From Yuukianura sp. NJ FZ-2021 (taxonomy: Eukaryota): 64,000 nt of DNA. The notes beneath the pieces are model-generated. The model had not been told where the DNA came from. It saw only the letters and a list, made by a program, of their open reading frames with translations, and made no database searches. The position numbers and the translations under genes are program-made. This document shows, one piece after another, positions 2,714-18,466 of the stretch (position 1 is the first letter of the stretch; the number at the start of each line of letters is the position of its first letter). The stretch spans positions 2,790,001-2,854,000 of the forward strand of contig CM102286.1 in the NCBI GenBank assembly GCA_046563655.1, written 5' to 3'.

Positions 2714-5053
2714 TTAGATTCCGTCTTTTTGGTTTTTGTGCTCATTCACTATGTCTTCAGCGGCTTTTTCTGCGATGACAATAACAGCCGTGTTTGTATT
2801 TGCATTAGTAACTTTCGGCATAATTGAAGCGTCCACAACTCGAAGTCCTTTAAAACCATGGACACTAACAGAAAACAAAAAGTTTGACCTTTGACCTATC
2901 AATTAAGCTTGAAAAGTTTACAAAACAGGGAAAACATACCGTAGTTTTGAGTCAACAACAGAATTTGAATCTTCCGCTCCAAAACCCATTCTGCAAGTTC
3001 CCGATGCGTGGTACCACAAGATCCCTTTCTTTTTAATGTAACATTTCAAGTACCCATCACTTGGAAATTTGTTGGCTTTGGCACATTCTGGATCCTTTAC
3101 ATGTTCTGTGTCGAGCTCCCTGAACGCCTTGGTTTTAAAAAATTTCAGTGCCGTTTTCATTCCTGTCAAAATTTGAGTCAAAAAAAATTGTTTACGTTTT
3201 GTTTAAATTTTGCGTAACTACTTCGTGTATTGTCATATTTTAATTTCACCATATTTCAGCACGCCATAATCCTCTTTGTTTTCTAAAAACTTGTAGTCAA
3301 TTACAGCCAATTCAGCATTATCAATTGAGTGTTGATTGAGAGCTGTAGTGTTCAGCGTTACGGTACCAAGCGAAACATTGCTGTTAGTACGACCGACCAG
3401 CACTGCTATTATGAACTGGTCTGGCGGTAACTCGTAGATACCTTTTGTATCAAAAGTTGTACCAATAAAGAAATATTGTACATCAGGCCAATCCGATTCT
3501 CCGCGACTTTTGGCTTGCGGTGAAACAAGAAAACCTTGCGTTCCTACCCCATTTTCAGAAAGAACAATTTCAGGTCTGTGATTCAGGTAGTCTTCGAAGA
3601 TTTCTTCTGTCAAGTTATTATTTACACTTGAAATCTTGCTTGGATCGTTGATTTTGAACGGACCAAATGAAATTCCTTGATGATTTTGTAAATTTTTCCC
3701 AACGGGAAGCTCTTTGCGCAGTTCAATTTTGGCTTTGTCCAGAACATCTTTTGGTCCAATACCGGATTTTTGGAGCACAAGAGGCGAAGAGTAAGTACCA
3801 GCAGAAATTATGACTTCTTTTTTGGCGTAAGCTTGGAGTTTGACGCCGTGCCGGACGTACTCTACGCCAATGGCTTGGTTTCCGTCGAACAAAATCTTAT
3901 GTACAAAAGCGTACCGGACAACAGTCAATTTTTTTCTTTTAAGGTGAGGTTGAACGTATGCGGTGTAAGTAGATACACGCCGACCACATTCGTGCATTAT
4001 ATCTGATGGAGTGAATCCTGAAAAAGTTTTGAATTAAAACGATTTCTAAAAAAGCTCGAGTACCGCGGTACTACGGTACCGCAGGATACCTTCACGTTGT
4101 GGTCCATTTGGATCGAACACGTCGTAACCAAGTTCAGCAGCAGCTTTCTCCCAAACTGGATACATTGGTCGAGAAGATGTGACTATTGTCATTGGTCCAT
4201 CCGTTCCATGTTGATCTTTTAAAAAAAGATTACTTTTGATATTCTTAAAGTTTGAAAAATGTGGTAAAAAAAAGTTTGAAAGTTCATGTTTAAAACAAGC
4301 TGCAAGACCTGATTTTGGCCACATCCCATGGTATGACTCTGCTTTTCGAAAATATTTCAGCAAAGATGCATACGTCCAACTGCTGTCCTTTGAAACTTCT
4401 GCCCATAGGTCATAATCTTTTCTAAAAATTTAAAGAACGCATTTCAAAATTTGATATTTTTAAGAATTTGCTAAGCGTTGCTTACGGATGTCCCCTGTTG
4501 TAAATGATTGCATTGTGGGATCCACTCCCACCGAGCATTTTACCCATAACATCATCCAGTTTCTGTAATATTATTGAATATCATGGCAAAATATGCTTCA
4601 ACATTAAAATTAAATGCTCAATTTACGCGATTGTTGACATTCTTCTGTGGTACGGTAGTGTAGAAGTAGTTGATGTCTGGTGAACTTCCGATGTATTCGT
4701 AAAAGGCGGGTACTTGACCTAAAAGCGGTGGTTCACCACCAGCTTCCAGAAGAAGCACTTTGAAATGCTCCGATAAACGTCCAGCCATGACACATCCTCC
4801 CGTGCCACCCCCAACTAAAACACAAGTCAAAATTTTTATTAGTATTTTAGGAGAATTTCTAAAATTTGAAAAAATTTAAACAGCAAAAATATATCAAATA
4901 CTTACCAATTATAAAATCATACGTAGGCTTCGACGGGTGTTTTCCTTCGGCATGAAACTGTTTTTCGTCAATTCGTCGCAGCTCATCAGTTGCCTGACGT
5001 ATAACATACGGGAGTGCCGTAAGAATTATTGCAGCAAATGAAGCAACTCCCAT
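2714..5053 (-). CDS. GMC oxidoreductase copy 1 (glucose/choline dehydrogenase-like flavoprotein), 8 exons, 597 aa
   Basis: Exons 5053-4906, 4814-4627, 4562-4486, 4421-4309, 4215-4090, 4017-3250, 3162-2940, 2864-2714, all GT-AG, sum 1794 nt in frame. Motifs: [53 protein letters not shown]...[49 protein letters not shown]...NTNTA (His/Asn catalytic pair). Confidence 0.95.
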
Positions 5054-5375
5054 TCTTAACTTCTGTGGTTACTTAAGTATTCAATCCTACCAAAAAGTCA
5101 AACTTGGTTCAAATGGCGTCGAAGCGGCAAATTTAAACCAAAGTTTAGTTTTCAAAATACAGCGCAGTTTTGTAAAGACAATGCCTTTTTAGTTGAGAAT
5201 TGAATAATAAAAGGGAAACCTTGAAATTGACATTTCTGATTGCACTTTAGATGGTTCCATTTTACGTAATTTTCTAAGGACACCGCAATAACGTCGCTAC
5301 CTTTTGAATTTGACATGTTGAGCGGTTTATTTACATTAATTTGCAGAATAATTGCATTAGGTTAGTTTTTTGTAT

Positions 5376-5642
5376 TCACGCAGTAGAGGCTTTTTCTGCT
5401 ACAACTGCTACAACTACAGCGGCGTTTAAATTGGCATTTGTAATTCGCGGCATGATTGAAGCATCCACAACTCGAATTCCAATAAATCCATGGAGACTAA
5501 ATAGAAAACAAAAAACTCTTGGTTGACATCCAGTGATATAAAGATTTGTAGATATTGAGCAATTAGGAAGAGGATATTTATACCGTGTACGCCGTAGTTT
5601 AGAATCAACAACGAATTTGAGTCATGCGATCCATAGCTCATG
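5376..5642 (-). pseudogene. GMC oxidoreductase remnant: end of exon 7 plus exon 8 only
   Basis: Reads MSYGSHDSN then a 1-nt deletion (aat tc gtt gtt gat tct aaa cta cg vs aat tct gtt gtt gac tct aaa cta cg in copy 2). Last exon [39 protein letters not shown] has a duplicated gttgtagca and an early stop. Exons 1-6 are absent. Confidence 0.85.
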
Positions 5643-5900
5643 CTGTAGTTTCAGTTTTAGTTCGGTAGACAATAATACCTATGTCAAGTTGAAGCCTAGC
5701 ATTGTCTAATTCGTTAAATTAGAGCTCAAATCTGCCTACGAAACTACAATTCCATATCACCTAATTTTTGAAAACGGTTAGTTGGTTTGAGAAGGGGCGT
5801 TGTATTTTGTATGTAAATCAACATTGAACCAAATTATTTAGCGCCTGCTTCTTTATTTCACCACTTCCAATTAGTAGTTTGATTATGGTTATTTTTGAAT

Positions 5901-8247
5901 TTAAATTTGATACTCGTGCAATATATCTGCTGCTGCTTTCTCTGCGATGCCAATTACTGGCGCATTTGTATTTGCGTTTGTTACGCGCGGCATAATCGAA
6001 GCATCCACAACACGAAGTCCCGTAAATCCATGAACCCTAAATTCAATCCAAAAAATTGAACTTTGACCTCTACTGAAAAAGTTGGCAAATTTTAAATAAT
6101 GAAGACTACCGTAGTTTAGAGTCAACAACAGAATTTGAATCTTGCGGTCCATAACTCATTCTGCAAGTTCCCGCTGCGTGAAACCAAACACTTGCTTTCT
6201 TCTGAATATAACAGCGCCAGTAGTCATCGCTCGGGAATTTGTGGCTGTTGGCACATTCTGTATCCTTCACAAATCTTGTTCCAATAGCTTTGAATGCATC
6301 ACTTTTGAAAATTTTTAACGCCGATTTTATGCCTAAAACCAAAAATAGAATCATTTCGTTTGAGTTTTGTGTAAAAAACAAAGAATTTCATTCGAGTAAT
6401 ATTTTTTACGAATTCCAAGTCTTACCAAATCTGAGCACTTCGTAATCTTCTGGGCTTTCTAGGAACTTATAGTCAATTGTAGCCAATTCCGCGTTGTCAA
6501 TAGATTGTTGAAGGAAAGCGGAAGTATTCAGCGATACTGTACCAAGCGACTCTGCATTAAATTCTGGACGACCAATGAGAACTGCCGAATAAAGGTAATT
6601 TGGTGGTGTAGCTGCGATTCCGCCACTACCAAAATTTGTGCCTATAATAAAAAATTGTACGTCGGGCCAACTTGATTCTCCACGACTTTTAGCTTGCGGT
6701 GAGACAAGGAACGCTTGTGTTCCTAAACCAGTTTCAGATAGAACCATTTCATGTTGCAGGTTTAAGTAGGCTTCAAAGTTGGCCTCGGTTAAGTTATTGA
6801 AAACATTGGATAGTTTGCTTCTGTCGTTGACTTTGAACGGACCAAGTGAAAGTCCTTGGTGATTTTGTAAATTTTTTCCAACGGGAAGCTCTTTGCGCAG
6901 TTCAATTTTGGCTTCTTCCAGAACATCTTTAGGTCCAATACCAGATTTTTGGAGGATCAAAGGAGATGCGTACGTTCCAGCAGAAATTATGACTTCCTTT
7001 TTAGCGTAAGCTTGCAGTTTGACACCATGTCGGACGTATTCTACACCAATGGCTTGAGTTCCGTTGAATAAAATTTTGTGTACAAAGGCGTATCGCACAA
7101 CGGTCAATTTTTTTCTATTAAGGTACGGTTGAATGTAACTGTTGTAAGTGGTCAAGCGTCGACCGTCTTGCCGCATGAAGTCTGATGGAGTGAATCCTGA
7201 AATAAAAATTTTGAATAGAAATACCTATATTTTTTCGACACAACATGGTACCTTCACTTTGTGGTCCGTTTGGATCGGAAGTTTCGTAACCCAGTTCTGA
7301 CGCGGCTTTTTTCCAAGTCGGATAAATTGGGCGCGAAGATGTGACAAGTACCATTGGTCCATGTGCTCCGTGTTGATCTTTTCACAAGTCATATTTTTTT
7401 GGTTAGATTTTTTTTTTAAATTAACTAAAAAGAAAACGAGTTTTTGTTAAAACTGAATTAAAAAAAATACCCGATTTAGGCCAAATCCCTTGGTATGATT
7501 CCGCTTTTCGAAAATATTTCAGTAAAGACTCATATGTCCAACTTGGATCTTTTGAAATTTCTGCCCAACTATCATAGTCTTTTCTAAAAAAAAATTCAAA
7601 AATTTAACTCAGAAGGTTATTTTGAAATTTAGAAATGTTGCAAACGTACGGATGACCTCTGTTATAAACCAGAGCATTGTGAGACCCGCTTCCTCCAAGC
7701 ATTTTGCCCATGGTATCTTCAAGTTTCTACAACAGTATCACAATAATGTGTCAGCTAACGCATTCACATGAACGTCGTAATACTAAAGCTAGAAGTAGGG
7801 TTATGAATTTTCAATTTTACACGGTTGTTGGCGTTTTTTTGCGGAGTAGACGTGTAAAAGTAGTTGATGTCTGGTGAGCTACCGACATATTCGTAGAAGG
7901 CTGGTACAGACGTCAAAGGTGGTGGTTCACCACCAGCTTCGAGAAGAAGTACACTGAAATGTTCTGACAGTCGCCCGGCAACTACGCATCCAGCCGTTCC
8001 AGCGCCAACTAAAATCATTTCGAAATTACACAGAATGTAATTTAGAAAAACGTTAAAAACATATGTTAACAATATACACAAAATGTTTTAGTTACACACC
8101 GACTATGAAGTCATAGGAATTTTTGGAACTGTGCTTCCTTCCGGCAAGAAATTGTTTTTCGTCAATTCTTCTTAGCTCATCTGTTTCTAGGCGTAGAAAG
8201 TAGGGAAGAGCTGTAAGAATCGCATTAGCAAAAAATGCGACACCCAT
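5901..8247 (-). CDS. GMC oxidoreductase copy 2, 8 exons, 593 aa
   Basis: Exons 8247-8100, 8008-7821, 7726-7650, 7583-7471, 7377-7252, 7196-6426, 6332-6110, 6036-5901 (1782 nt). Intron positions match copy 1. Motifs [64 protein letters not shown]. Confidence 0.95.
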
Positions 8248-8672
8248 CCTTAAGGGTCTGGACTTAGCAACTCTTTAGCAAATTTACAGGACTTAACTTA
8301 CAAATTAATGCGTGTTAATCTATAGACACTAATTTGTTAAGTTGTAGTCTAGCGTCAAATTTGAAGCTCCTTGGAATTAAAAATCGATTGTAATTTGAAG
8401 TACTGTTTTACTGCTCCATTTGCCGAGTCGTAAACTTTCTTAAATTGTTTGAGACCAAACATTAAGTTAAGCTTACTGAAGCACATCATAACAATGTTCC
8501 AATTTTTAATAACAATGAAACCTATACTTTCTCCCTTTAAAATTTATTCGAATTTCAAAAATGAGTTCCAAAGTTTGGAATATGGAAACCCAGACTTTTT
8601 GAAAAATATTTGGCGCCGTTTTCCTCATTACCACAACTATACTAACTATAGATATTTTCGTAATATTTAACT

Positions 8673-10989
8673 TTAATTTTGATGTTCGCGTAGAATGTCG
8701 TTTGCCGCCTTCTCGGCGATGACCACCACTGCTGCATTTATATTTACATTTGCAATTCTCGGCATGATTGAAGCATCTATAACTCGAAGTCCACTAAATC
8801 CGTGCACACTAAAGACAAGACAAGAACTTTTAGTTTGACCTTAAGTAACAAAGGTTTACAAAATTTTGAGTAAAGATTGTGTTTATACCGAAGTTTTGAG
8901 TCAACAACAGAATTTGAATCTTGAGGTCCGTAGCTCATTCGGCAAGTTCCGGCTGGGTGAAACCACACAGTCGCTTGGTTCTGTATGTAGCAGCGCCAGT
9001 AATCATCGCTTGGAAATTTGTACTTTTTGGCACATTCTTTGTCTTTTACATATTTTGTTCCAATAGCTTTGAATGCCTCTGTTTTCAAAATTTTTCTCGC
9101 CGCTTTTATTCCTAATAAATTAAAAGGTACTGAGCAAAGTTTTTCCTTTGACAATTCCAAAATTTTACCAAATTTTAGCACTGAGTAGTCTTCTCGGCTT
9201 TCTAAAAACTTGTAGTCAATTAGAGCTAATTCTGCATTATCAATGGACTGTTGCTGAAAAGCAGAAATGTTTAGCGATACTGTACCAAGCGATACTTCGT
9301 TGAATTCTGGACGACCAACGCGTACTGCTGCATAGAGGTAATTCGATGGTGTAGCTGAGTTAACCTCAGCGCCAATATCTGTTCCGACTACTGGAAAAAT
9401 AAGTACGTCAGGCCAACTCGATTCTCCACGACTTTTGGCTTGCGGTGAAACAAGAAATGATTGTAGTCCTGAGGTAGCTTCAGAAAGAACGGCTTCATGT
9501 TGTAGGTTTAAGTACGCTTCGAAGTTAGCTTCCGTTAAATTATTGTTAACAGTAGATAATACGCTAGGGTCCTTGACCTTGAACGGACCAAGTAAAACTC
9601 CTTGGTGATTTTGTAAATTCTTGCCAACCGGAAGTTCTTTGCGCAGTTTAATTTTGGCTTTGTCCAGAACATCTTTTGGTCCAATACCAGATTTTTGGAG
9701 GATCAAAGGAGATGCATAAGTACCGGCAGAAATTATGACTTCTTTTTTTGCGTAAGCTTGAAGTTTGACCCCATGTCGGACGTATTTTACTCCAACGGCA
9801 TGATTTCCATTGAACAAAATCTTATGAACGAAAGCGTATCGGATAACTGTTAATTTTTTTCTGTTATTGTGGGGTTGAACGTATGCGGTGTAAGTGGATA
9901 CACGCCGTCCATCCTGGCGCATGACATCTGACGGAGCGAATCCTAAAATTATAATTATGAAATTCAAATAATTTCTATCAGGTTTGTGGTTCGCGGTACC
10001 TTCGGTTTGTGGTCCATTTGGATCAGAGAGTTCGTAACCGAGCTCGTATGCAGCTTTCTTCCAAATGGGATACGCAGTTCCTGAAGACGTAACCAATGTG
10101 ATTGGCCCATTTGTTCCATGTTGGTCTTAAAAAAAAATTACTATTTTATTTTAAAAACAAAAAACTAAAGTGCTAAAACTAAGAATTTCCCGTCCGTCAA
10201 ACGAAGTAAAATCACAAACTTACTTGACTTCGGCCAAATTCCTTGGTAAGATTCAGCCTTTCGAAAATATTTCAGTAAAGAGTCATATCTCCAACTTGGA
10301 TCTTTTGAAATTTTAGCCCAGTTATCAAAACCTTTTCTAAAAAAAATTGGAAACTTATGCGATGCCTTATTTCAAAATTACAAACATAACAACAGAAATG
10401 CCTTACGGATGACCCCTGTTATATTCAATTGCATTGTGCGACCCACTTCCTCCTAGCATTTTACCCATAGTATCCGTAAGTCTCTGCAAGAAGTGACAAA
10501 ATTTGAATAACTGTCAACTGTGTTATTTGAAGTAAATAATTTGAAGCTATTACACTTACACGATTGTTGATGTTTTTTTGCGGAATAGACGTGTAGAAGT
10601 AGTTGATGTCTGGTGAGTTTCCGACGTATTCGTAGAAGGCTGGGACAGAAGCTGTAGGCGGTGGTTCGCCACCCGCCTCAAGAAGAAGCACATTGAAATG
10701 TTCCGACAAACGTCCAGCCACGATACATCCAGCAGTGCCGGCACCAACTAAGAATTATTTCGAAACTGCTCCAAGTGTGTAACTCAAAAACGTTAAAAAC
10801 TTTTTTTTTGACAAAATATGAAAATTGTTGGTAAAACGTACCGACTATAAAATCATACGTATTTTTAGAGTTGTGTCTTCTCTCGTTAACAAATTGTTGT
10901 TCGTCGATTCGTCGTAGCTCGTCTGTTTCCAGACGCAGAATATATGGAAGGGCTGTAAGAATAACTGTAGCAAATGAAGTGACTGCCAT
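8673..10989 (-). CDS. GMC oxidoreductase copy 3, 8 exons, 594 aa
   Basis: Exons 10989-10842, 10747-10560, 10483-10407, 10336-10224, 10125-10000, 9942-9169, 9111-8889, 8808-8673 (1785 nt). Exon lengths 148/188/77/113/126/774/223/136 match the paralogs. Motifs [18 protein letters not shown] and [10 protein letters not shown]. Confidence 0.95.
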
Positions 10990-11250
10990 GGCTAAAGTCT
11001 AACGTGGATTGGCTTCAGTTGGAGTTGAGGTGAAGTTAAGTAAGAAATTCGGTGCAAATTAATGCTGTGACACCAATGTGTCAAAATGTAGTCTAGTATT
11101 GTCTAATTCGTTTTTGAGCTCAAATCTAACTAGAAATCAATAATTGTTAAAAAGAAACCCGTTTTGTTTCGGCGAAGGGGAGGGGGGGGCGAATTGTATT
11201 TCAGATGCAATGATTATGATTATAACTTTGATTATGGTTTATTTTTGAAT

Positions 11251-11831
11251 TTAAAATTGATACTCGTGAAGTATTTCTGCTGCTGCTTTTTCTGCGATGG
11301 CCACAACGGCTGTATTTGTATTTGTGTTTACAATTTGCGGCATGATTGAAGCATCTACAACTCGAAGCCCCGTAAATCCATGGACACTAAACAGAAAGCC
11401 AGCAAGTTGACATTTTACATCTACTGAAAAAGTTTGGACATTTTTAAGAATGAAGGCTACCGAAGTTTTGGGTCAACAACTGAATTTGGATCTAGCGGTC
11501 CGAAGCTCATTCTACAGGTTCCCGCTGGATGATACCATAGACCTGCATTCTTCTTAATGTAACAGCGCCAGTATTCATCGCTTGGGAATGTGTGTGTTTT
11601 AGCACATTCTGGATCCTTTACATATTCTGTGCCAATCCTCTTGAATGCATCAGTTTCAACAATTTTTAGCACCGTCCTCATGCCTACCCAAACCAATGTA
11701 AAGAAAATTATTCGCTTAGAGTAATATTTTTTTTTATGAATTCCAAGTTTTACCAAATTTTAACACTTCGTAGTCTTTCCGGTTTTCTAGGAATTTGTAG
11801 TCAATTCTCGCCAATTCCGCGTTGTCAATAG
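11251..11831 (-). CDS. GMC oxidoreductase copy 4, 3' part only (5' part lost in the assembly gap)
   Basis: Partial exon 6 (11831-11754, [25 protein letters not shown]), exon 7 11683-11461 (223 nt, [11 protein letters not shown]), exon 8 11386-11251 (136 nt). Exon sizes equal those of the paralogs. Confidence 0.9.
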
Positions 11832-11931
11832 NNNNNNNNNNNNNNNNNNNNNNNNNNNNNNNNNNNNNNNNNNNNNNNNNNNNNNNNNNNNNNNNNNNNN
11901 NNNNNNNNNNNNNNNNNNNNNNNNNNNNNNN
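11832..11931. other. Assembly gap (100 N, placeholder length)
   Basis: Exactly 100 N; truncates a gene on each side. Confidence 1.
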
Positions 11932-11979: not shown

Positions 11980-13747
11980 GCGATTCTGGTTCTGAACATG
12001 ATTCTGAAGTCGTTTTTGGAGCTGACTTCCGGAAATTCTTCCGAACATATCTGAAAAGAAACAAATCGATCATTTGCTCTCCAAGATTTGGCGAAATCCA
12101 ATGCACTTCGGAACCAGAGTGGAAGTTTGATTTAGGTACTAATCTCAATTTTCAAAATTTTGAAGTTTGCGCCTGCGGAATTTTGAAATTCTGTTTTCTT
12201 TGGGTAGACGAAAGGGTGATCTTATTGGTTGATATGGACTGCTTTGCTGTTCAAGTGTACGGTGACCGCGATGATGTTGGACAACCAAGAGCTGTTTTCA
12301 ACGGCCCAGTGTAAGTGCTTTCAAAGGTTAAACCATTTCGAATTCAAATGGGCATTTTTTAATATTTTGTTTTGCTTTTTCACTCCAAAAGTTTTAGTTT
12401 TATGTTTTTTGTTTTTGTCAATTTTTTTTAGAATTGAGTCTGTCAGTTACGAAGCCAAGCAAGTCGGGGTCAAACGGCGCATGACACGAGAACTGGCACG
12501 GCGGACTTGTCCCAATCTAATTGAAATTGAAAATCCAAAGAGAAGAAATGGCCGTCCAGACAAAATCCCTGGAATGACTGCGACAGCAAACATCAAAAAG
12601 TCCATTTTGAAAATTCTGAATCAATATGGAGACTTGTCCACTTTTGAATTTGCCTCAAAAGACGAATTCTACATCGACTTGACTGAAGTCATCAACAAGC
12701 AGGAATACCGTGGAAGTAGAAGCAACCTTCGCGGTATGATTCCAGCCGGGAATGACTTTTGGTCATCCGTGTACATATACGGAAGTCGCACGGTTGGACA
12801 CTCCAGGAGACCGACATACTTGTTTCATCGACTTCCCTGTCTTCGTAGAAAGTCCGGAGCATATACGGAATTTGAACGTCAAGAGATTCGACTTCTTTAT
12901 GGAACTTGGATTGGCAGTCAAATTGTGAACAGCATTCTACAGGATACTGGCTATCAAGCGTCAATTGGAGTCGGGTCAAACAAGGTCACGGCCAAAATTG
13001 CCTCTGATACACACAAGCCTGGATCAATAACGGTTTTCCCGCCAGCAAGTTACGATTCAGTTGCGGAATTCATTGACTTTCAAAAAGTACCAGGATTTTC
13101 AGCTAACTTGGGTGACACTGTTCGAAATGAATTTGGAACCGAAACGATTCAAGATCTTCAGCACATAAAAGTCCATCGACTGGTGAATTTGAATTTGCGC
13201 GGGAATAATGGCAATAGAGAATATCTAGAAGACGTACTCCAAGGAGCTCATTTCATATGTGACGAAGATGTCGAGCCAATTGATGGATTCAAAACGGCAT
13301 CTTGCAACAGAAATTTCAAATACGGTCAGCAGTATATCAATATTTTAAAAATTCAAGTTTTGTCTTAAATCGAATTCGCATTTTTAAAATGTTTTTTTTT
13401 CATTTTCAGGTGAAGTATCTGAGCAGTATGTTTTTGAAGAAATGCTGCGGGAACAGTACGAGGAAATGCTGGAACGCCTTCGGTTTGAACACAGAGTTAA
13501 TGGACGTCTTCCATACTCAATCAAGTTGGCGGTAAAACTGAATCGACACAATGGTGGAACTTCAACAAAATCGTTCAGAATTTCGGGATCTCCGATATCC
13601 GCCAGACTCTTGACAATGAGATTTTTGAAAAATGCTTTCACAAGCGAGAACAATCGGGCAAAATATCGCGATTCAATTCTTCCTTGGGATGAAAACATAT
13701 TCTCAGGAGTGAGCAATATCGGCCTAGTTGCAAATTTTGGACAATAG
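11980..13747 (+). CDS. Divergent Y-family (Pol eta-like) polymerase, copy A; 5' end lost in gap
   Basis: Exons 11980-12135 (frame also open back to the gap), 12208-12310, 12432-13324, 13410-13747, phases consistent. Motifs: VILLVDMDCFAVQV (I), IESVSYEAKQVGVKRRM (II), EFASKDEFYIDLT (III), GYQASIGVGSNKVTAKIASDTHKP (IV), QKVPGFSANLG (HhH/thumb), little finger KTASCNRNF ... EEMLERL. Confidence 0.88.
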
Positions 13748-14634
13748 GAAATTCCTATTAGGAATCAAGACTGATTTAAACAAAGTAGCATAACTAATCG
13801 GCAGCTTAGGTTAGTTAATATAGAATATATAAAATTCGAATTATATAAAATTAGCTTTTTGTTGTTTACTAATGTTAAACAGTGGTTAACCCTTCAGTAG
13901 TGAAATTATTTATGACCAATGTTAAGTAGAAATTAGTTTAACTTATCATATTAATATATTACGATCGTATTAATTTAATACACAAAATATACAACTTATT
14001 TTGGTACGTTGATGTAAAAGAAACTTTTACATATTAAAGTTCAACAATAGACTTATGCAGATCTTCTGGGAAAAAATTCCATAAAACTTTAATTTTTAGT
14101 TGAATTAAAACAGTTCCAAAAATTCGGAAATCCTATAAGTAATGTTGCTTTCTGAATTCAGTGAACCCAAATCTAATTTTTTGAAAGTGTATTAAGCTTT
14201 TTATGCATTCAAGGCTTCAGTTCGTTTATAATTTTTTCTTTCATTTGATTCTTTACCAGAAACATTTCTGGACTAGCACTGGAGAAGTAACGAAAGATTT
14301 GAAGATCTTATCATTCAAACGTGTTTTGTGTTTTGTAAGAAAAAATGTATAATTCTTCAACAAGTTTTACAACTACAACGCTACTTTATGAAGGAATGGG
14401 CAAAAAGCCATAAAATTTGCTACGCCTCTGCCTTATGACCTCGATTAACAAGATTATTCCCCCCTCAAAAGCTTATGTTTAGTATGTTACGCATGTTATG
14501 CTGCATATATTGTAGCTAAGAAACTAAAAACACAGATTGTGGTTCCTCAAGGTTAGTCAAAAAACGTTTTTGGTTGATACACATCATACACGTCAGAGCT
14601 TTTGAACTAATAGTAAACCGCACCACAAAATCTC

Positions 14635-14640
14635 TATAAA
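14635..14640 (+). promoter_or_regulatory. Possible TATA box of Y-family copy B
   Basis: ctATAAA ~130 nt upstream of the ATG at 14769. Weak evidence in AT-rich DNA. Confidence 0.3.
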
Positions 14641-14768
14641 CGTCAAAGTGGTTCTGGATTTTAGCATGAGACTTTCACACAACAAGCTGCAGTCTTTAGT
14701 TTGACTACAGTCTTGGTAGTGTCTGCAGATTAACAAGTTAAAATCGCTGATTTTTAGAAAGTTGTAAT

Positions 14769-16989
14769 ATGGCTACTGAAGATTTGTTCGGAGAAGTAAT
14801 AGTGAACGGATTTCGTGGAAGTGCGAAATTTCAAATGTTTCAACGATTTTCTACTATTACTCCACGTTTAGCTCAAGGATTGGAGACTTTCATGGTTTCT
14901 ATTGCAAATGGAAGAAGTATGGGCCCTGCTGTTAGAGTCCCCTTGATTTTAGGTTCCAATTTATCCAAAATCAATTGGACGCTATACCTCTGCAATGATT
15001 GCGGTAAGTTTTCATTTATGTTTTGTAAGACTTAGGGTGAAATTCTATTCTCATTTTTACCGTAAAACTTCTAATAGACGCCTTAACGCCCAAGCATTTA
15101 TTCAACATCTCATCTTCTACCCCTGACATGTACGAGTCCAGCGTTTATTTTTAGATTCATGGTTCAACCCCTGGAGCTTTTTACCGACTAGAGTTTGTTA
15201 GAAGTTTTACGGTAAATACAATTAACTAAAATTTAACAATTTTGTTTTTGTTACAGACACTTCTGAAGTTGTTTTTGGAAACGACTTCCGGAGATATTTT
15301 CAGACAAACTTTGCAGAGCCGATTCCAACCATTGTGTCTCCAATATTTGGTGAAATTCGGTGCACTTATGCACCAATATTGAAATTCGCATTAGGTATTT
15401 AGTAATTAATACAAGCTACTATAACAGTAATTAAATTAAGGCTTAACAATTTGAGTTTTACACATGCGTCTAAACGTTGAAATTTTGAACAGATGACAGT
15501 GTAATTTTACTAGTGGATATGGACTGCTTTGCTGTGCAAGTTTACGGGAGTCCAAATGATGCTGGAAAGCCAAGGGTGGTATTCAGTGGACCAGTGTAAG
15601 TGCTACATAGCAATTTTTTCTAAACTTCAATTTTCTTGCTTTCGTTATTTTAAAACTTGTGGGATTTCCCGCCTTTTGTAGAATTGAATCGCTCAGTTAC
15701 GAAGCGAAGGAGAGAAACGTCAAGCGATGTATGACAGAGGAGCAAGCGTTAAAGGAATGTCCTGAACTTGTTATAATTGAAAATCCTGAGAGAAAAAACG
15801 GCTGTCCAGATAGGATTCCTGGGATGAAGGCGACCGCGAAAATCAAAAAAGCCATTTTGGAAGTTTCGAATCAATACCGTTCGGCAATTTTCGAATTTTC
15901 GTCGAAAGACGAATTTTACATTGACGTTACGCAAGCTGCTGACGACCAGGAAAATAGTACAAGAAATAACCTTCATCTCATGATTCCAGACGGGACCCAT
16001 TTTTGGCCATCGGTCTACTTGTACGGAAGTGGCACCACGGGCAAATCTATGCAACCGACATATTTGTTACGACGGCTACAGTTTCTTAACAGGAAACGTT
16101 CTTCGTACTATTCCGACTTTGAAAGACAAGAAATTCGATTGCTGTTTGGAACTTGGATTGCGAGTCGAATTGTGGAAAATATTTTAAACAAAACTGGATA
16201 CCAAGCTTCGATTGGAGTGGGGTCCAATAAGGTCGCCGCCAAAATTGCTACCGGGGTACACAAGCCGGGATCCATCACTGTTTTCCCGCCTTCCAGTTAC
16301 GATCAAGTTTCAAAATTTATTGAGTTTGAAGACGTGCCTGGATTTGCATCCAATTTGGGTGACAGCGTTCGCGAAAACTTTGGAATCACGACGATTGACG
16401 ATCTTCAGCGCATTACAGTTGGAAGAATCTTGAACACGAGCTGGAACAACTGGACTGAAAAAGATTTAAACAAAAGACTCAGAGGATGCCACTTCATTTG
16501 TGATGAAGTGGTAAAACCAATTAGCTGTGCAAAAAGTACAACCTGTACAAGAAGATTTTGGAATGGTAAGTGTCAATTCAGTAATTGAATTTTCGTATTC
16601 ATAGTTAGAATGACTTCTTTTATTAAGAAAAATTTTTTGCTTCAGTTGACGTGTCTCAGCATTACCAACTTGAGAAAATGCTGGACGAGCAGTACGAGGA
16701 AATGCTGGAACGACTCTGGTTTGAACTGCGACATAATAAACGTCGTCCTGTTTCAATCAAACTTGAAGTAAACTTTTACAACCAAAATGGCGGAAGTTCA
16801 AACAAGTCACTCAAAATCAGTGGATCTCCACTACCTCGTCAAATGCTAAACGTTGTTGCTTTAAGAAATGCTTTCATAACAGAAAACAACAAACTAACGA
16901 ACAGCCGCAACGATTCAGTTCTTCGCTGGAATCAGCGTACATACGGAGGTGTCAACAGTATCACCATAACTTCAAATTTCGAAAAATAA
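14769..16989 (+). CDS. Divergent Y-family (Pol eta-like) polymerase, copy B, 5 exons, 567 aa, with ~125-aa N-terminal extension
   Basis: Exons 14769-15003, 15257-15394, 15493-15595, 15682-16565, 16646-16989, sum 1704 nt, all GT-AG, no stops. Motifs: VILLVDMDCFAVQV, IESLSYEAKERNVKRCM, EFSSKDEFYIDVT, GYQASIGVGSNKVAAKIATGVHKP, EDVPGFASNLG, KSTTCTRRF ... EEMLERL. The last three intron positions are shared with copy A. Confidence 0.9.
15056..15216. repeat. Inverted repeat (24-bp arms) in intron 1 of Y-family copy B; MITE-like or RNA hairpin
   Basis: Left arm tttaccgtaaaacttctaatagac (15056-15079) vs reverse complement of 15193-15216, tttaccgtaaaacttctaacaaac: 22/24 identical. Confidence 0.75.
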
Positions 16990-17293: not shown

Positions 17294-18466
17294 TTAAACA
17301 TTTCTTTCTTCATGTCCATCAGTATGGTCAGTTCCAGCGCAGGTTCCACAGTAAATGACATTGCATCCGTCACAACCATCTCCACTGCCACCGCCACCTT
17401 CACAACTCCCTCCACCAATTATCATCAGTATGAACAGCACAATCATAAACACTACTGTCACGATCAAGAAGATAGACAGAGCAGCAGCAACATAATTTTC
17501 TGGACGAAATTGACAGCATTCTCCGGACATAATCGCTTGCGTGTAAATGGCAAGGCAGGTCGATAGTCCTAAACTTGCTAAACCACAAACGACGATCATT
17601 CCGGGTTCCTCCGGTGGAAATGCATAGAGCAGCAGAAGCGATATCAGCGCCACTGTGGTCAGCACTATCAGCAAGTGGCCGTACCATTTGAGATCAAATT
17701 TGGACTGGACGCTTGAGTACAGGAGCACCACGGCGCATGGGCAGAGTAGAATTCCAAAAGCGTAGACGACATGGTTCTGTCTATTGATAAACAAAACAAG
17801 TTTTAAGAAATGAATTTTGTGTAAAGGTCAAAGGTCATTGAACTTACTCTGACAAAGTAGCCAGAACTGCCACGCCAAATCCAAATGTTAGAGTGAACAA
17901 TCCCAGAAGGATTAAATTGGCAGGAAATATTTTCATAAGTGGTTTGTTGCAGAACAGGATGAGAAAAATTACAAACGAAAATACAAAAGCAACCGCCGAA
18001 AATACAGACCAGCCTTCTTGAATAACGCATCTTATCGAAGTGATGAAATTTGTTAGCACGATGAGAATTAGAGTTGTGAGTACTTGAGCCGTAAATATTC
18101 CGTAAATTTTTCTGCAACAAAACAATTTACCAAATTAATTTCTAGTATTTAAAATTATTCAAAAATTTTTGATTCCTCAAAAATGTAGAAACCCGAAAAA
18201 GTTAAAAGAGAAATTTCAAAATTTTGTCAACTCAATCTCTTCTTAACGCGTTAAATTTTTGCAAAATTTGTAAAACACGCTTACCTAAGGAATCCAAGGC
18301 GAATTGAGGCGTCACTAAAATTTGGTTGTGCAGGTAGTGATAAATGTGCTTGGACACTTGTTGCACTTTGACCTCTGTTGTAGATTGCACTAAAATCGTC
18401 ATTTTCATCTGGCAGGATTGAAGTTTTAAAAGTGCTGTTTGTATTGCCGTTCATTTTGGAGCTCAT
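17294..18466 (-). CDS. TMBIM/Lifeguard (Bax inhibitor-1 family) membrane protein, 3 exons, 310 aa
   Basis: Exons 18466-18285, 18111-17848, 17780-17294 (933 nt). Family motifs FSDASIRLGFLRKIYGIFTAQV, FPANLILLGLFTL, QSKFDL, TQAIM...PENYVAAAL; multiple hydrophobic helices. Confidence 0.88.

Follow-up and report, generated by a model that had tools for sequence, protein, structure and literature searches.

A tandem pair of DNA polymerase eta-like genes with alanine at the steric-gate position in Yuukianura sp. NJ FZ-2021

By textbook account DNA polymerases keep ribonucleotides out by means of a steric gate, and a locus of Yuukianura sp. NJ FZ-2021 raises the question of what a polymerase might do when this gate is naturally missing. 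The locus lies in a stretch of 64,000 nucleotides (contig CM102286.1 of assembly GCA_046563655.1, positions 2,790,001 to 2,854,000 of the forward strand), called the window here, and all coordinates are those of the window. It carries a tandem pair of plus-strand genes resembling DNA polymerase eta (Pol eta), copy 1 at 11980-13747 and copy 2 at 14769-16989, which an initial annotation made from the letters alone had proposed as ribonucleotide-incorporating Y-family polymerases. In both copies motif I reads DMDCF-A-VQV, and the Ala stands at the gate position in an ungapped and unambiguous alignment, as had been claimed. The three metal-binding carboxylates (the Asp of motif I and the Asp-Glu of motif III, within SKDE) are kept in both, and SYEAK, VKR and SNKVxAKI..HKPG are present, also in agreement with that annotation. 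Among the nucleotide-phosphate contacts, the Tyr of SYEAK, Arg61 (human numbering) and the HKP Lys are kept, and Lys stands for Arg55. The reading preferred here, tentatively and at somewhat less than an even chance, is that the window proteins may be active template-dependent nucleotidyl transferases working outside the PCNA-ubiquitin route, possibly as dimers, and able to insert ribonucleotides.

Are the genes whole? Copy 2 is complete, running from ATG to stop through five exons in an open frame of 1704 nucleotides (nt) that encodes 567 amino acids (aa), whereas copy 1 is represented in the window by four exons with an open frame of 495 aa, and its first exon is not in the assembly. All introns of both spliced models are short and have GT-AG borders, and the frames are open throughout. 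A run of N ends 48 bp upstream of the copy 1 exon at 11980; what it must conceal includes, on the minus strand, the 5' exons of a GMC oxidoreductase gene and, on the plus strand, the promoter of copy 1 together with its first exon. Since the first exon of copy 1 falls in this gap, the statement of the initial annotation that both copies are intact holds for copy 2 only, while the positions it gave for the 103-nt motif-I exon, the Ala codons and the Asp-Glu codons are exact. Within the 64-kb window, tblastn found neither a third copy nor a homolog of copy 2 exon 1 upstream of copy 1. The parts of the pair are as follows, each with its strand and the evidence on which it was placed.

11832-11931, no strand: assembly gap of 100 N, in which exon 1 of copy 1 and the 5' portion of the minus-strand GMC gene are hidden.
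11980-12135, plus: second exon of copy 1 (the first visible), C-terminal half of the N-terminal domain, with EVVFGADF; AG acceptor, GT donor and phase-1 joins; aligns with copy 2 exon 2.
12208-12310, plus: motif-I exon of copy 1, 103 nt, reading VILLVDMDCFAVQVYG; from sequence and AG/GT borders.
12246-12248, plus: Ala codon GCT of copy 1 at the steric-gate position; from sequence and alignment.
12258-12260, plus: Tyr codon of copy 1 four residues after the gate (gate+4); from sequence and alignment.
12432-13324, plus: large exon of copy 1 (palm, fingers, thumb) with SYEAK, VKR and SNKVTAKI..HKPG; from PDB and Pfam matches and alignment.
12439-12441, plus: Ser of copy 1 at the polar-filter position; from alignment to human Ala49.
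12661-12666, plus: catalytic Asp-Glu codons of copy 1 in SKDEF; from sequence and PDB alignment.
13410-13747, plus: last exon of copy 1, little-finger-like, with the stop codon directly after; from the splice model and a weak IMS_C match.
14769-15003, plus: exon 1 of copy 2 from ATG, read as the N-terminal half of a retropepsin-like domain; from the splice model, the reading resting on a homologous exon of the metagenomic locus L001.
15257-15394, plus: exon 2 of copy 2, C-terminal half of the N-terminal domain, with EVVFGNDF; from the splice model and alignment.
15493-15595, plus: motif-I exon of copy 2, 103 nt, reading VILLVDMDCFAVQVYG; from sequence and AG/GT borders.
15531-15533, plus: Ala codon GCT of copy 2 at the steric-gate position; from sequence and alignment.
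15543-15545, plus: Tyr codon of copy 2 at gate+4; from sequence and alignment.
15682-16565, plus: large exon of copy 2; from Pfam and alignment.
15689-15691, plus: Ser of copy 2 at the polar-filter position; from alignment to human Ala49.
15908-15913, plus: catalytic Asp-Glu codons of copy 2 (SKDE); from sequence and alignment.
16646-16989, plus: last exon of copy 2, little-finger-like, and stop codon; from the splice model.

Two copies with the same unusual residue could still be relics. The copies are identical at 177 of 299 positions (59%) in the large exon and at 285 of 491 (58%) overall, which bears out the roughly 60% estimated earlier by eye. Over 491 codons the nonsynonymous (dN) and synonymous (dS) divergences are 0.32 and 1.18 by NG86, a dN/dS of 0.27, and 0.295 and 0.955 by LWL85, a dN/dS of 0.31. 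Ratios of about 0.3 at a dS of about 1 indicate purifying selection on both copies since an old duplication, and they are not near 1, in line with the earlier argument against decay. The 16-residue motif-I block is identical between the copies and is the most conserved stretch of the pair; because of this identity at a dS of about 1, and because relatives in other organisms have a non-aromatic gate as well, chance is ruled out as the source of the Ala. One of these relatives, L001, has the five-exon structure of copy 2, and its spliced frame is open over 571 aa; it agrees with the window genes in where its introns lie and in their phases (1, 1, 2, 1 in copy 2), at about 37% protein identity. 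Another relative (P0013) is a 425-aa uninterrupted open reading frame (ORF) on a 1401-nt JGI contig that crosses the intron positions of the genomic copies, from which a spliced transcript is suggested. That the pair consists of functionless decaying duplicates, or of an artefact of annotation or assembly, would agree with the missing first exon of copy 1, with fast evolution and with long tree branches, but the open frames over four and five exons with consensus splice sites, the selection estimates, the exon structure kept in L001 and the ORF of P0013 make this highly improbable.

To which family do the proteins belong? The Pfam IMS family (PF00817) matches copy 2 with 72.5 bits (E-value 4.5e-20) and copy 1 with 71.3 bits (1.1e-19), above the cutoff of 23.2. 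A PDB search with the large exon gave 73 Y-family sequences at E <= 0.01. Human Pol eta ranks first among the solved structures (E 2.7e-14, with residues 3-295 of 298 in the alignment), and after it come Pol iota (2.3e-9, a local match), Dbh/Dpo4 (about 1e-8) and Rev1 (1.5e-4); Pol kappa is absent among the 60 PDB matches listed. The closest sequence match found by HMMER among 1.84 billion representatives has 39% identity, and the next-best matches are canonical Pol eta proteins of a tapeworm, amphioxus, nematodes, a sea urchin, a sawfly, a cephalopod, a sponge and a rotifer. Identity to canonical Pol eta is about 25-30%, and identity to the gate-less relatives outside the pair about 26-38%. 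Other collections yielded little. In word-index protein searches a single exon had no close relatives among longer proteins and two weak matches among proteins of similar length, and a family profile brought no new members; neither the 23 pattern matches in viral contigs nor the 57 in contigs of prokaryote genomes are related.

The next question is whether the gate is missing outside this pair. Motif I could be read in 94 of the 150 best database matches; 81 of these have a Tyr gate, 7 a Phe gate, 5 a Glu gate and 1 an Ala gate. A larger set of 122 sequences was composed, with a pattern of our own making, from the best matches, cluster members and three spliced models. An aromatic gate (Phe or Tyr) is present in 105 of them, and there the gate+4 residue is Glu in 103 and Ala in 2. 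The other 17 sequences, which amount to 12 distinct proteins after six Folsomia entries of one 90% cluster are collapsed, have Glu (12), Ala (3), Gln (1) or Ser (1) at the gate and Tyr (10), His (3), Trp (2), Phe (1) or Gln (1) at gate+4, with Glu at that place in none. Residues i and i+4 lie on one face of a helix. Judging from these sequences, Glu and the aromatic residue have effectively traded places on one helix face in most of these proteins, and the ancestral-looking state appears to be a Glu gate with an aromatic gate+4 residue, not an empty pocket. The window genes, with Ala and Tyr, are by the same comparison one step beyond it.

A tree of 57 rows was built with IQ-TREE by a quick short search, with no named Pol kappa or Rev1 included. 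All 16 rows without an aromatic gate group together in a single clade (SH-aLRT 93), in which every sequence with a readable motif I has a non-aromatic gate (A, E, Q or S) and no Glu at gate+4. This clade sits inside a 34-row group that holds every named metazoan Pol eta (SH-aLRT 84); the clade with the Pol iota-like member P0028 falls outside that group. The window pair (SH-aLRT 99) joins L001 (88) and then Folsomia P0156 and P0008 (96). The chosen outgroup (P0154, P0155, P0149) is Pol eta-like and not monophyletic, and the root of the tree is to be ignored. The placement of the clade is provisional because of the long branches and the quick tree search. With that reserve, the window genes are, on their sequences, a lineage-specific and fast-evolving offshoot of animal DNA polymerase eta. 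The Pol eta-like assignment of the initial annotation is thereby upheld; the neofunctionalisation that it proposed is not private to the pair, since the change is a trait of a whole clade of springtail and oribatid-mite paralogs.

Those members of the clade that carry a species name belong to the springtails Folsomia and Orchesella and to one oribatid mite, and they are already public. Three proteins of Folsomia candida (OXA37822.1, OXA41349.1 and XP_035715905.1) and two of Orchesella cincta (ODM91094.1 and ODM87662.1) carry the name 'DNA polymerase eta', one of O. dallaii (CAL8100778.1) is labelled 'unnamed protein product', and that of the mite Oppia nitens (XP_054159717.1, P0011) is labelled 'uncharacterized'. 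A metagenome scan added L001, whose gate is Gln, and a second locus of the same metagenome, L002, as clade members among the 80 loci kept. No canonical springtail Pol eta was found among 30 proteins checked by name, a check that is uninformative on its existence.

How far has the pocket changed around the gate? Ten rows of the clade were aligned with ten canonical ones by L-INS-i, and human numbering was carried over through the PDB alignment. We take the human gate to be F18 and the gate+4 residue to be E22. The identity of F18 as the gate is confirmed by PMC13716900. At the positions that matter most for the pocket, the comparison is as follows.

Ala49 (polar filter): Ala in 10/10 canonical rows; Ser in the window copies and in 7/10 clade rows.
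Arg55: Arg in canonical rows; Lys in the window copies.
Arg61: Arg in canonical rows; kept in the window copies.
Tyr92: Tyr in canonical rows; Gly (MAFFT) or Thr (HMMER) in the window copies.
Ile114: Ile or Val in canonical rows; Lys in the window copies.
Asp115 and Glu116: kept in canonical rows and in the window copies.
Ala117: Ala in 10/10 canonical rows; Phe in the window copies and in 8/10 clade rows.

The place of human Gln38 is taken by Asn or a gap in the window copies. The gate Phe is described as pi-stacking with a conserved Tyr that stabilises the fingers (PMC5264235). We infer from the alignment that this stacking Tyr is the residue aligned to human Tyr92, which would then be lost in the window copies together with the gate.

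The changes extend to both ends of the proteins. Clade proteins end about 200-230 residues past the (N/H)KP motif, the only longer ones being the partial model P0156 and the two-module protein P0011, and canonical Pol eta extends 312-612 residues past it. With patterns of our own making, a PIP-like motif (xxx[LIMV]xxFF) occurs in 0/9 clade proteins versus 11/12 canonical Pol eta, and a UBZ-like motif (CxxC...H...H) in 0/9 versus 8/12. Pfam gives no UBZ match in the window copies, where the stop codon follows the little-finger-like region. Two clade proteins, P0013 and P0156, can be aligned to the little finger of canonical Pol eta.

At the other end, two exons of copy 2 and of L001 code for a common N-terminal domain of about 125 aa (36% identity over exon 1); copy 1 has the second exon, and the domain is absent from P0013, the Orchesella proteins and Folsomia XP_035715905.1. 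Its pattern, ..VNG..G.A.. followed by ..ILG.DF.., was read by eye and is presumably that of retropepsin-like proteins. At what we take to be the place of the D-T/S-G-A loop, likewise set by eye, copy 2 has FQMFQ and L001 has F-R-T-G-Q, without a catalytic Asp. Searches were made on single exons, with the two exons unjoined. In the ESM Atlas all nine neighbours listed, of 30, for the L001 exon are retropepsin-like or aspartyl-protease clusters, with scores of 0.90-0.92, although the shared features number 118-142 of 256, below the 170 typical of a true family, and shuffled sequences can also give consistent lists. Copy 2 exon 1 had no usable match there; Pfam gave no match for the N-terminal exons at E <= 10, and a PDB profile search gave 0 matches for the domain. 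Two AlphaFold models of the domain have low confidence (pLDDT 52.2 and 52.8); a wide VIA search reached a best Z of 4.0, which is not significant; and Foldseek returned nothing at E <= 0.001, with the human DDI1 RVP (3s8i_B) among its weak rows having the top TM-score (0.39; E 4.3, rank 39). A retropepsin-like domain without catalytic Asp is judged somewhat probable, and is to be taken as a lead only.

How might such proteins work? The sequences show that the fold family and the metal and phosphate ligands are kept, and that the surface on the sugar side of the nucleotide is rebuilt at the gate, gate+4, the Tyr aligned to human Tyr92 and positions 49, 114 and 117. The proposal to which most weight is given here is that a pocket of this kind may discriminate poorly against the 2'-OH, so that ribonucleotides, or other 2'-substituted nucleotides, could be inserted during gap filling or lesion bypass. 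Without PIP and UBZ the enzymes would act outside the PCNA-ubiquitin route, and they may possibly form dimers through the pseudo-protease domain. The proposed parallels are the F18A mutant of human Pol eta and mycobacterial DinB2. In F18A the ratio of rNTP to dNTP (ribo- and deoxyribonucleoside triphosphate) efficiencies rises from 0.0004-0.003 to 0.32-0.74 (PMC13716900, Table 1), and because sugar discrimination is nearly abolished in this mutant, ribonucleotide use by the window proteins is plausible by analogy. According to the same source F18A retains polymerase activity and bypass of cyclobutane pyrimidine dimers (CPD), and human cells with F18A are more UV-sensitive than knockout cells (PMC13716900). 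If an enzyme of this kind occurs naturally, it would for that reason have to serve another purpose or be targeted otherwise; it would be expected to be kept off the canonical sites of translesion synthesis, which fits the missing PIP and UBZ.

Several observations weigh against this proposal. Since most clade members have a Glu gate, an empty gate is not the conserved state of the clade; the placement of the clade is provisional, as said above; and the little finger is poorly matched by Pfam IMS_C, where the last exon of copy 1 reaches E 0.12 and 13.2 bits, below the cutoff of 20.7, and copy 2 has no match. The pocket itself may have been refilled, either by the Tyr at gate+4, one helical turn off, or by the clade-wide Phe117, and both copies have Ser at the polar-filter position. 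The eventuality allowed for in the initial annotation, that another side chain fills the gate, is hence a live possibility, with Tyr at gate+4, Phe117 and the Ser filter all new here. The window proteins would in that case be active polymerases that still select dNTPs, the aromatic having moved and a polar filter having been gained, and they would be specialised in lesion, template or partners. This fits the strict covariation of gate and gate+4, where Tyr, His, Trp or Phe stands at gate+4 in 16/17 non-aromatic-gate sequences (Glu in 0/17), versus Glu in 103/105 with an aromatic gate; it fits the change of Ala117 to Phe in 8/10 clade rows and 0/10 canonical ones, and the Ser filter in 7/10 clade rows where all ten canonical rows have Ala. 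In MsDpo4, which has no gate, a polar filter was by itself enough to bring selectivity back, in that a Thr introduced at this position sharply cut rNTP use (PMC6846668). On the other hand, the gate Glu of most of the clade became Ala in the window while gate+4 stayed Tyr, so that, compared with their relatives, the window proteins are short of one bulky side chain; the Tyr92-aligned residue, taken as the stacking partner of the gate, is also gone; and it is not obvious that C2' can be reached from a position one helical turn off. A compensated pocket is for these reasons on the unlikely side, though quite conceivable.

Further observations bear on catalysis as such. The gate+4 Glu is gone from both window copies, and it is reported to be essential in yeast Pol eta, where D30, E39 and D155 are described as essential and E39 is the gate+4 Glu (PMC5264235, citing Kondratick 2001). 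Elsewhere in the clade catalytic residues are eroded. Locus L002 (1082-1704) reads S-N-D-Y at the catalytic Asp-Glu, no motif-I exon is visible on its 1858-bp contig, and it is possibly an inactive paralog or pseudogene. The Oppia protein P0011 (919 aa) has two tandem Y-family modules with Ala and Ser gates, neither of which retains the catalytic Glu (they read D-G and D-D); whether a genuine double-module protein or the product of two tandem genes fused by the gene predictor, it recalls the tandem pair of the window. In P0013 the first Asp of motif I is replaced by Asn, Tyr52 by Ile and Arg61 by Cys, and from its sequence this member of the clade would seem to be expressed but is probably inactive. 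Such erosion in L002, P0011 and P0013 means that there is no uniform constraint on catalysis across the clade. The window proteins might then be pseudo-polymerases, with fold and DNA binding kept and catalysis lost or vestigial, that serve as scaffolds or regulators binding DNA or damage, perhaps as dimers through the retropepsin-like domain. The lack of a catalytic Asp in the N-terminal domain itself and the absence of PCNA and ubiquitin modules would suit such a role. However, Asp13, Asp115, Glu116, Tyr52, Arg/Lys55, Arg61 and the HKP Lys are kept in the window copies, L001 and most of the clade. Unless nucleotide and metal are bound, it is difficult to account for the persistence of these ligands at about 26-38% identity and for motif I being the most conserved part of the two copies, and a loss of catalysis in the window proteins seems unlikely.

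If the window proteins are instead the ribonucleotide-tolerant transferases proposed above, a wider and doubtful conjecture may be added: soil microarthropods might have undescribed, PCNA-independent enzymes derived from Pol eta, dimerised by a retropepsin-like domain that was domesticated and is inactive, and with an open sugar pocket, that perform ribonucleotide synthesis (or act on RNA-containing substrates) for DNA repair in dNTP-poor, non-dividing or desiccated tissues. These would be, if this were true, the animal counterpart of DinB2, and the order of a protease-like domain followed by a polymerase would echo the Pol polyproteins of retroelements. For the primase-like or template-free activity also suggested by the initial annotation, no support was obtained.

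The surroundings of the pair are those of ordinary host genes. Upstream, at 2921-11831 on the minus strand, lie four GMC oxidoreductase paralogs in tandem, matched by GMC_oxred_N and GMC_oxred_C, the last of which runs into the N gap, its 5' half not being in the assembly. Directly downstream of copy 2, at 17297-18134 on the minus strand, two ORFs have weak Bax1-I (TMBIM/Lifeguard-like) matches at E of about 5e-4, under the Pfam cutoff. Exons of a class C G-protein-coupled receptor gene are spread over about 33 kb at 29465-62707, also on the minus strand (7tm_3 1.6e-26 and 1.1e-15; pieces of ANF_receptor), and this gene has long introns. No transposon domain was found in the 68 ORFs scanned, and a mobile-element origin of the locus was rejected on these two grounds, the host-gene neighbours and the count of 0/68.

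What is new in these findings, and what is not? Gate-less Y-family polymerases are already known from bacteria, and the clade sequences are public under generic or misleading names. The assertion of the initial annotation that no natural animal example had been described stands in so far as no description of a natural gate-less eukaryotic or animal Y-family polymerase was found in the literature, with supplements and subscription journals outside the search; it needs qualifying in view of these public sequences and bacterial enzymes. No description of a fusion of a retropepsin-like domain to a Y-family polymerase was found in the literature either. The recognition of the clade and of its exchange between gate and gate+4, the Ala state of the pair, and the possible retropepsin fusion would be new. 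The clade offers a natural evolutionary experiment on sugar selectivity, in which the polar filter and the presumed stacking Tyr change along with the gate and the Glu at gate+4, and through it a role for repair synthesis that tolerates ribonucleotides might come to light in animals. Several public springtail annotations as 'DNA polymerase eta' do not denote POLH orthologs, and the retropepsin fusion, if real, would be a new domain architecture for a polymerase.

How, finally, do the window proteins compare with known systems? With eukaryotic Pol eta (POLH / RAD30), their best core match, they share DMDCF, SYEA(R/K), Arg61, the Asp-Glu pair and SNK..AK..KP; they differ from it in the Ala gate, the Tyr at gate+4, the changes of Ala49 to Ser, Tyr92 to Gly, Ile114 to Lys and Ala117 to Phe, the lack of a UBZ/PIP tail and the extra N-terminal domain of about 125 aa. 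As read by eye, that domain has a sequence pattern like that of retropepsin-like proteins of clan AA (DDI1 RVP, bacterial Asp_protease_2 / RVP_2), but it is without the catalytic Asp. Laboratory gate mutants (human F18A, yeast F35A, Pol iota Y39A, UmuC Y11A) have the same Phe/Tyr-to-Ala change at the same position. Raised rNTP use has likewise been reported for the gate mutants of Pol iota and Pol V, and Pol eta steric-gate mutants are described as laboratory-made tracers of polymerase usage (PMC13716900). In the window the change is instead natural, fixed in two paralogs and set in a rebuilt pocket. A natural non-aromatic gate residue is shared with the bacterial enzymes DinB2 and MsDpo4. Mycobacterial DinB2, with Leu at the gate, is called 'naturally adept' at rNTP use (PMC4176160) and takes rNTPs readily (PMC4176160, PMC4227753). 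MsDpo4 has no steric filter and no polar filter either, with Cys47 at the place that corresponds to Thr43 of E. coli Pol IV and Ala49 of human Pol eta (PMC6846668). These enzymes belong to the bacterial DinB branch and have no retropepsin-like domain, whereas the window proteins belong to the Pol eta branch and have Ser at the polar-filter position where MsDpo4 has Cys47.

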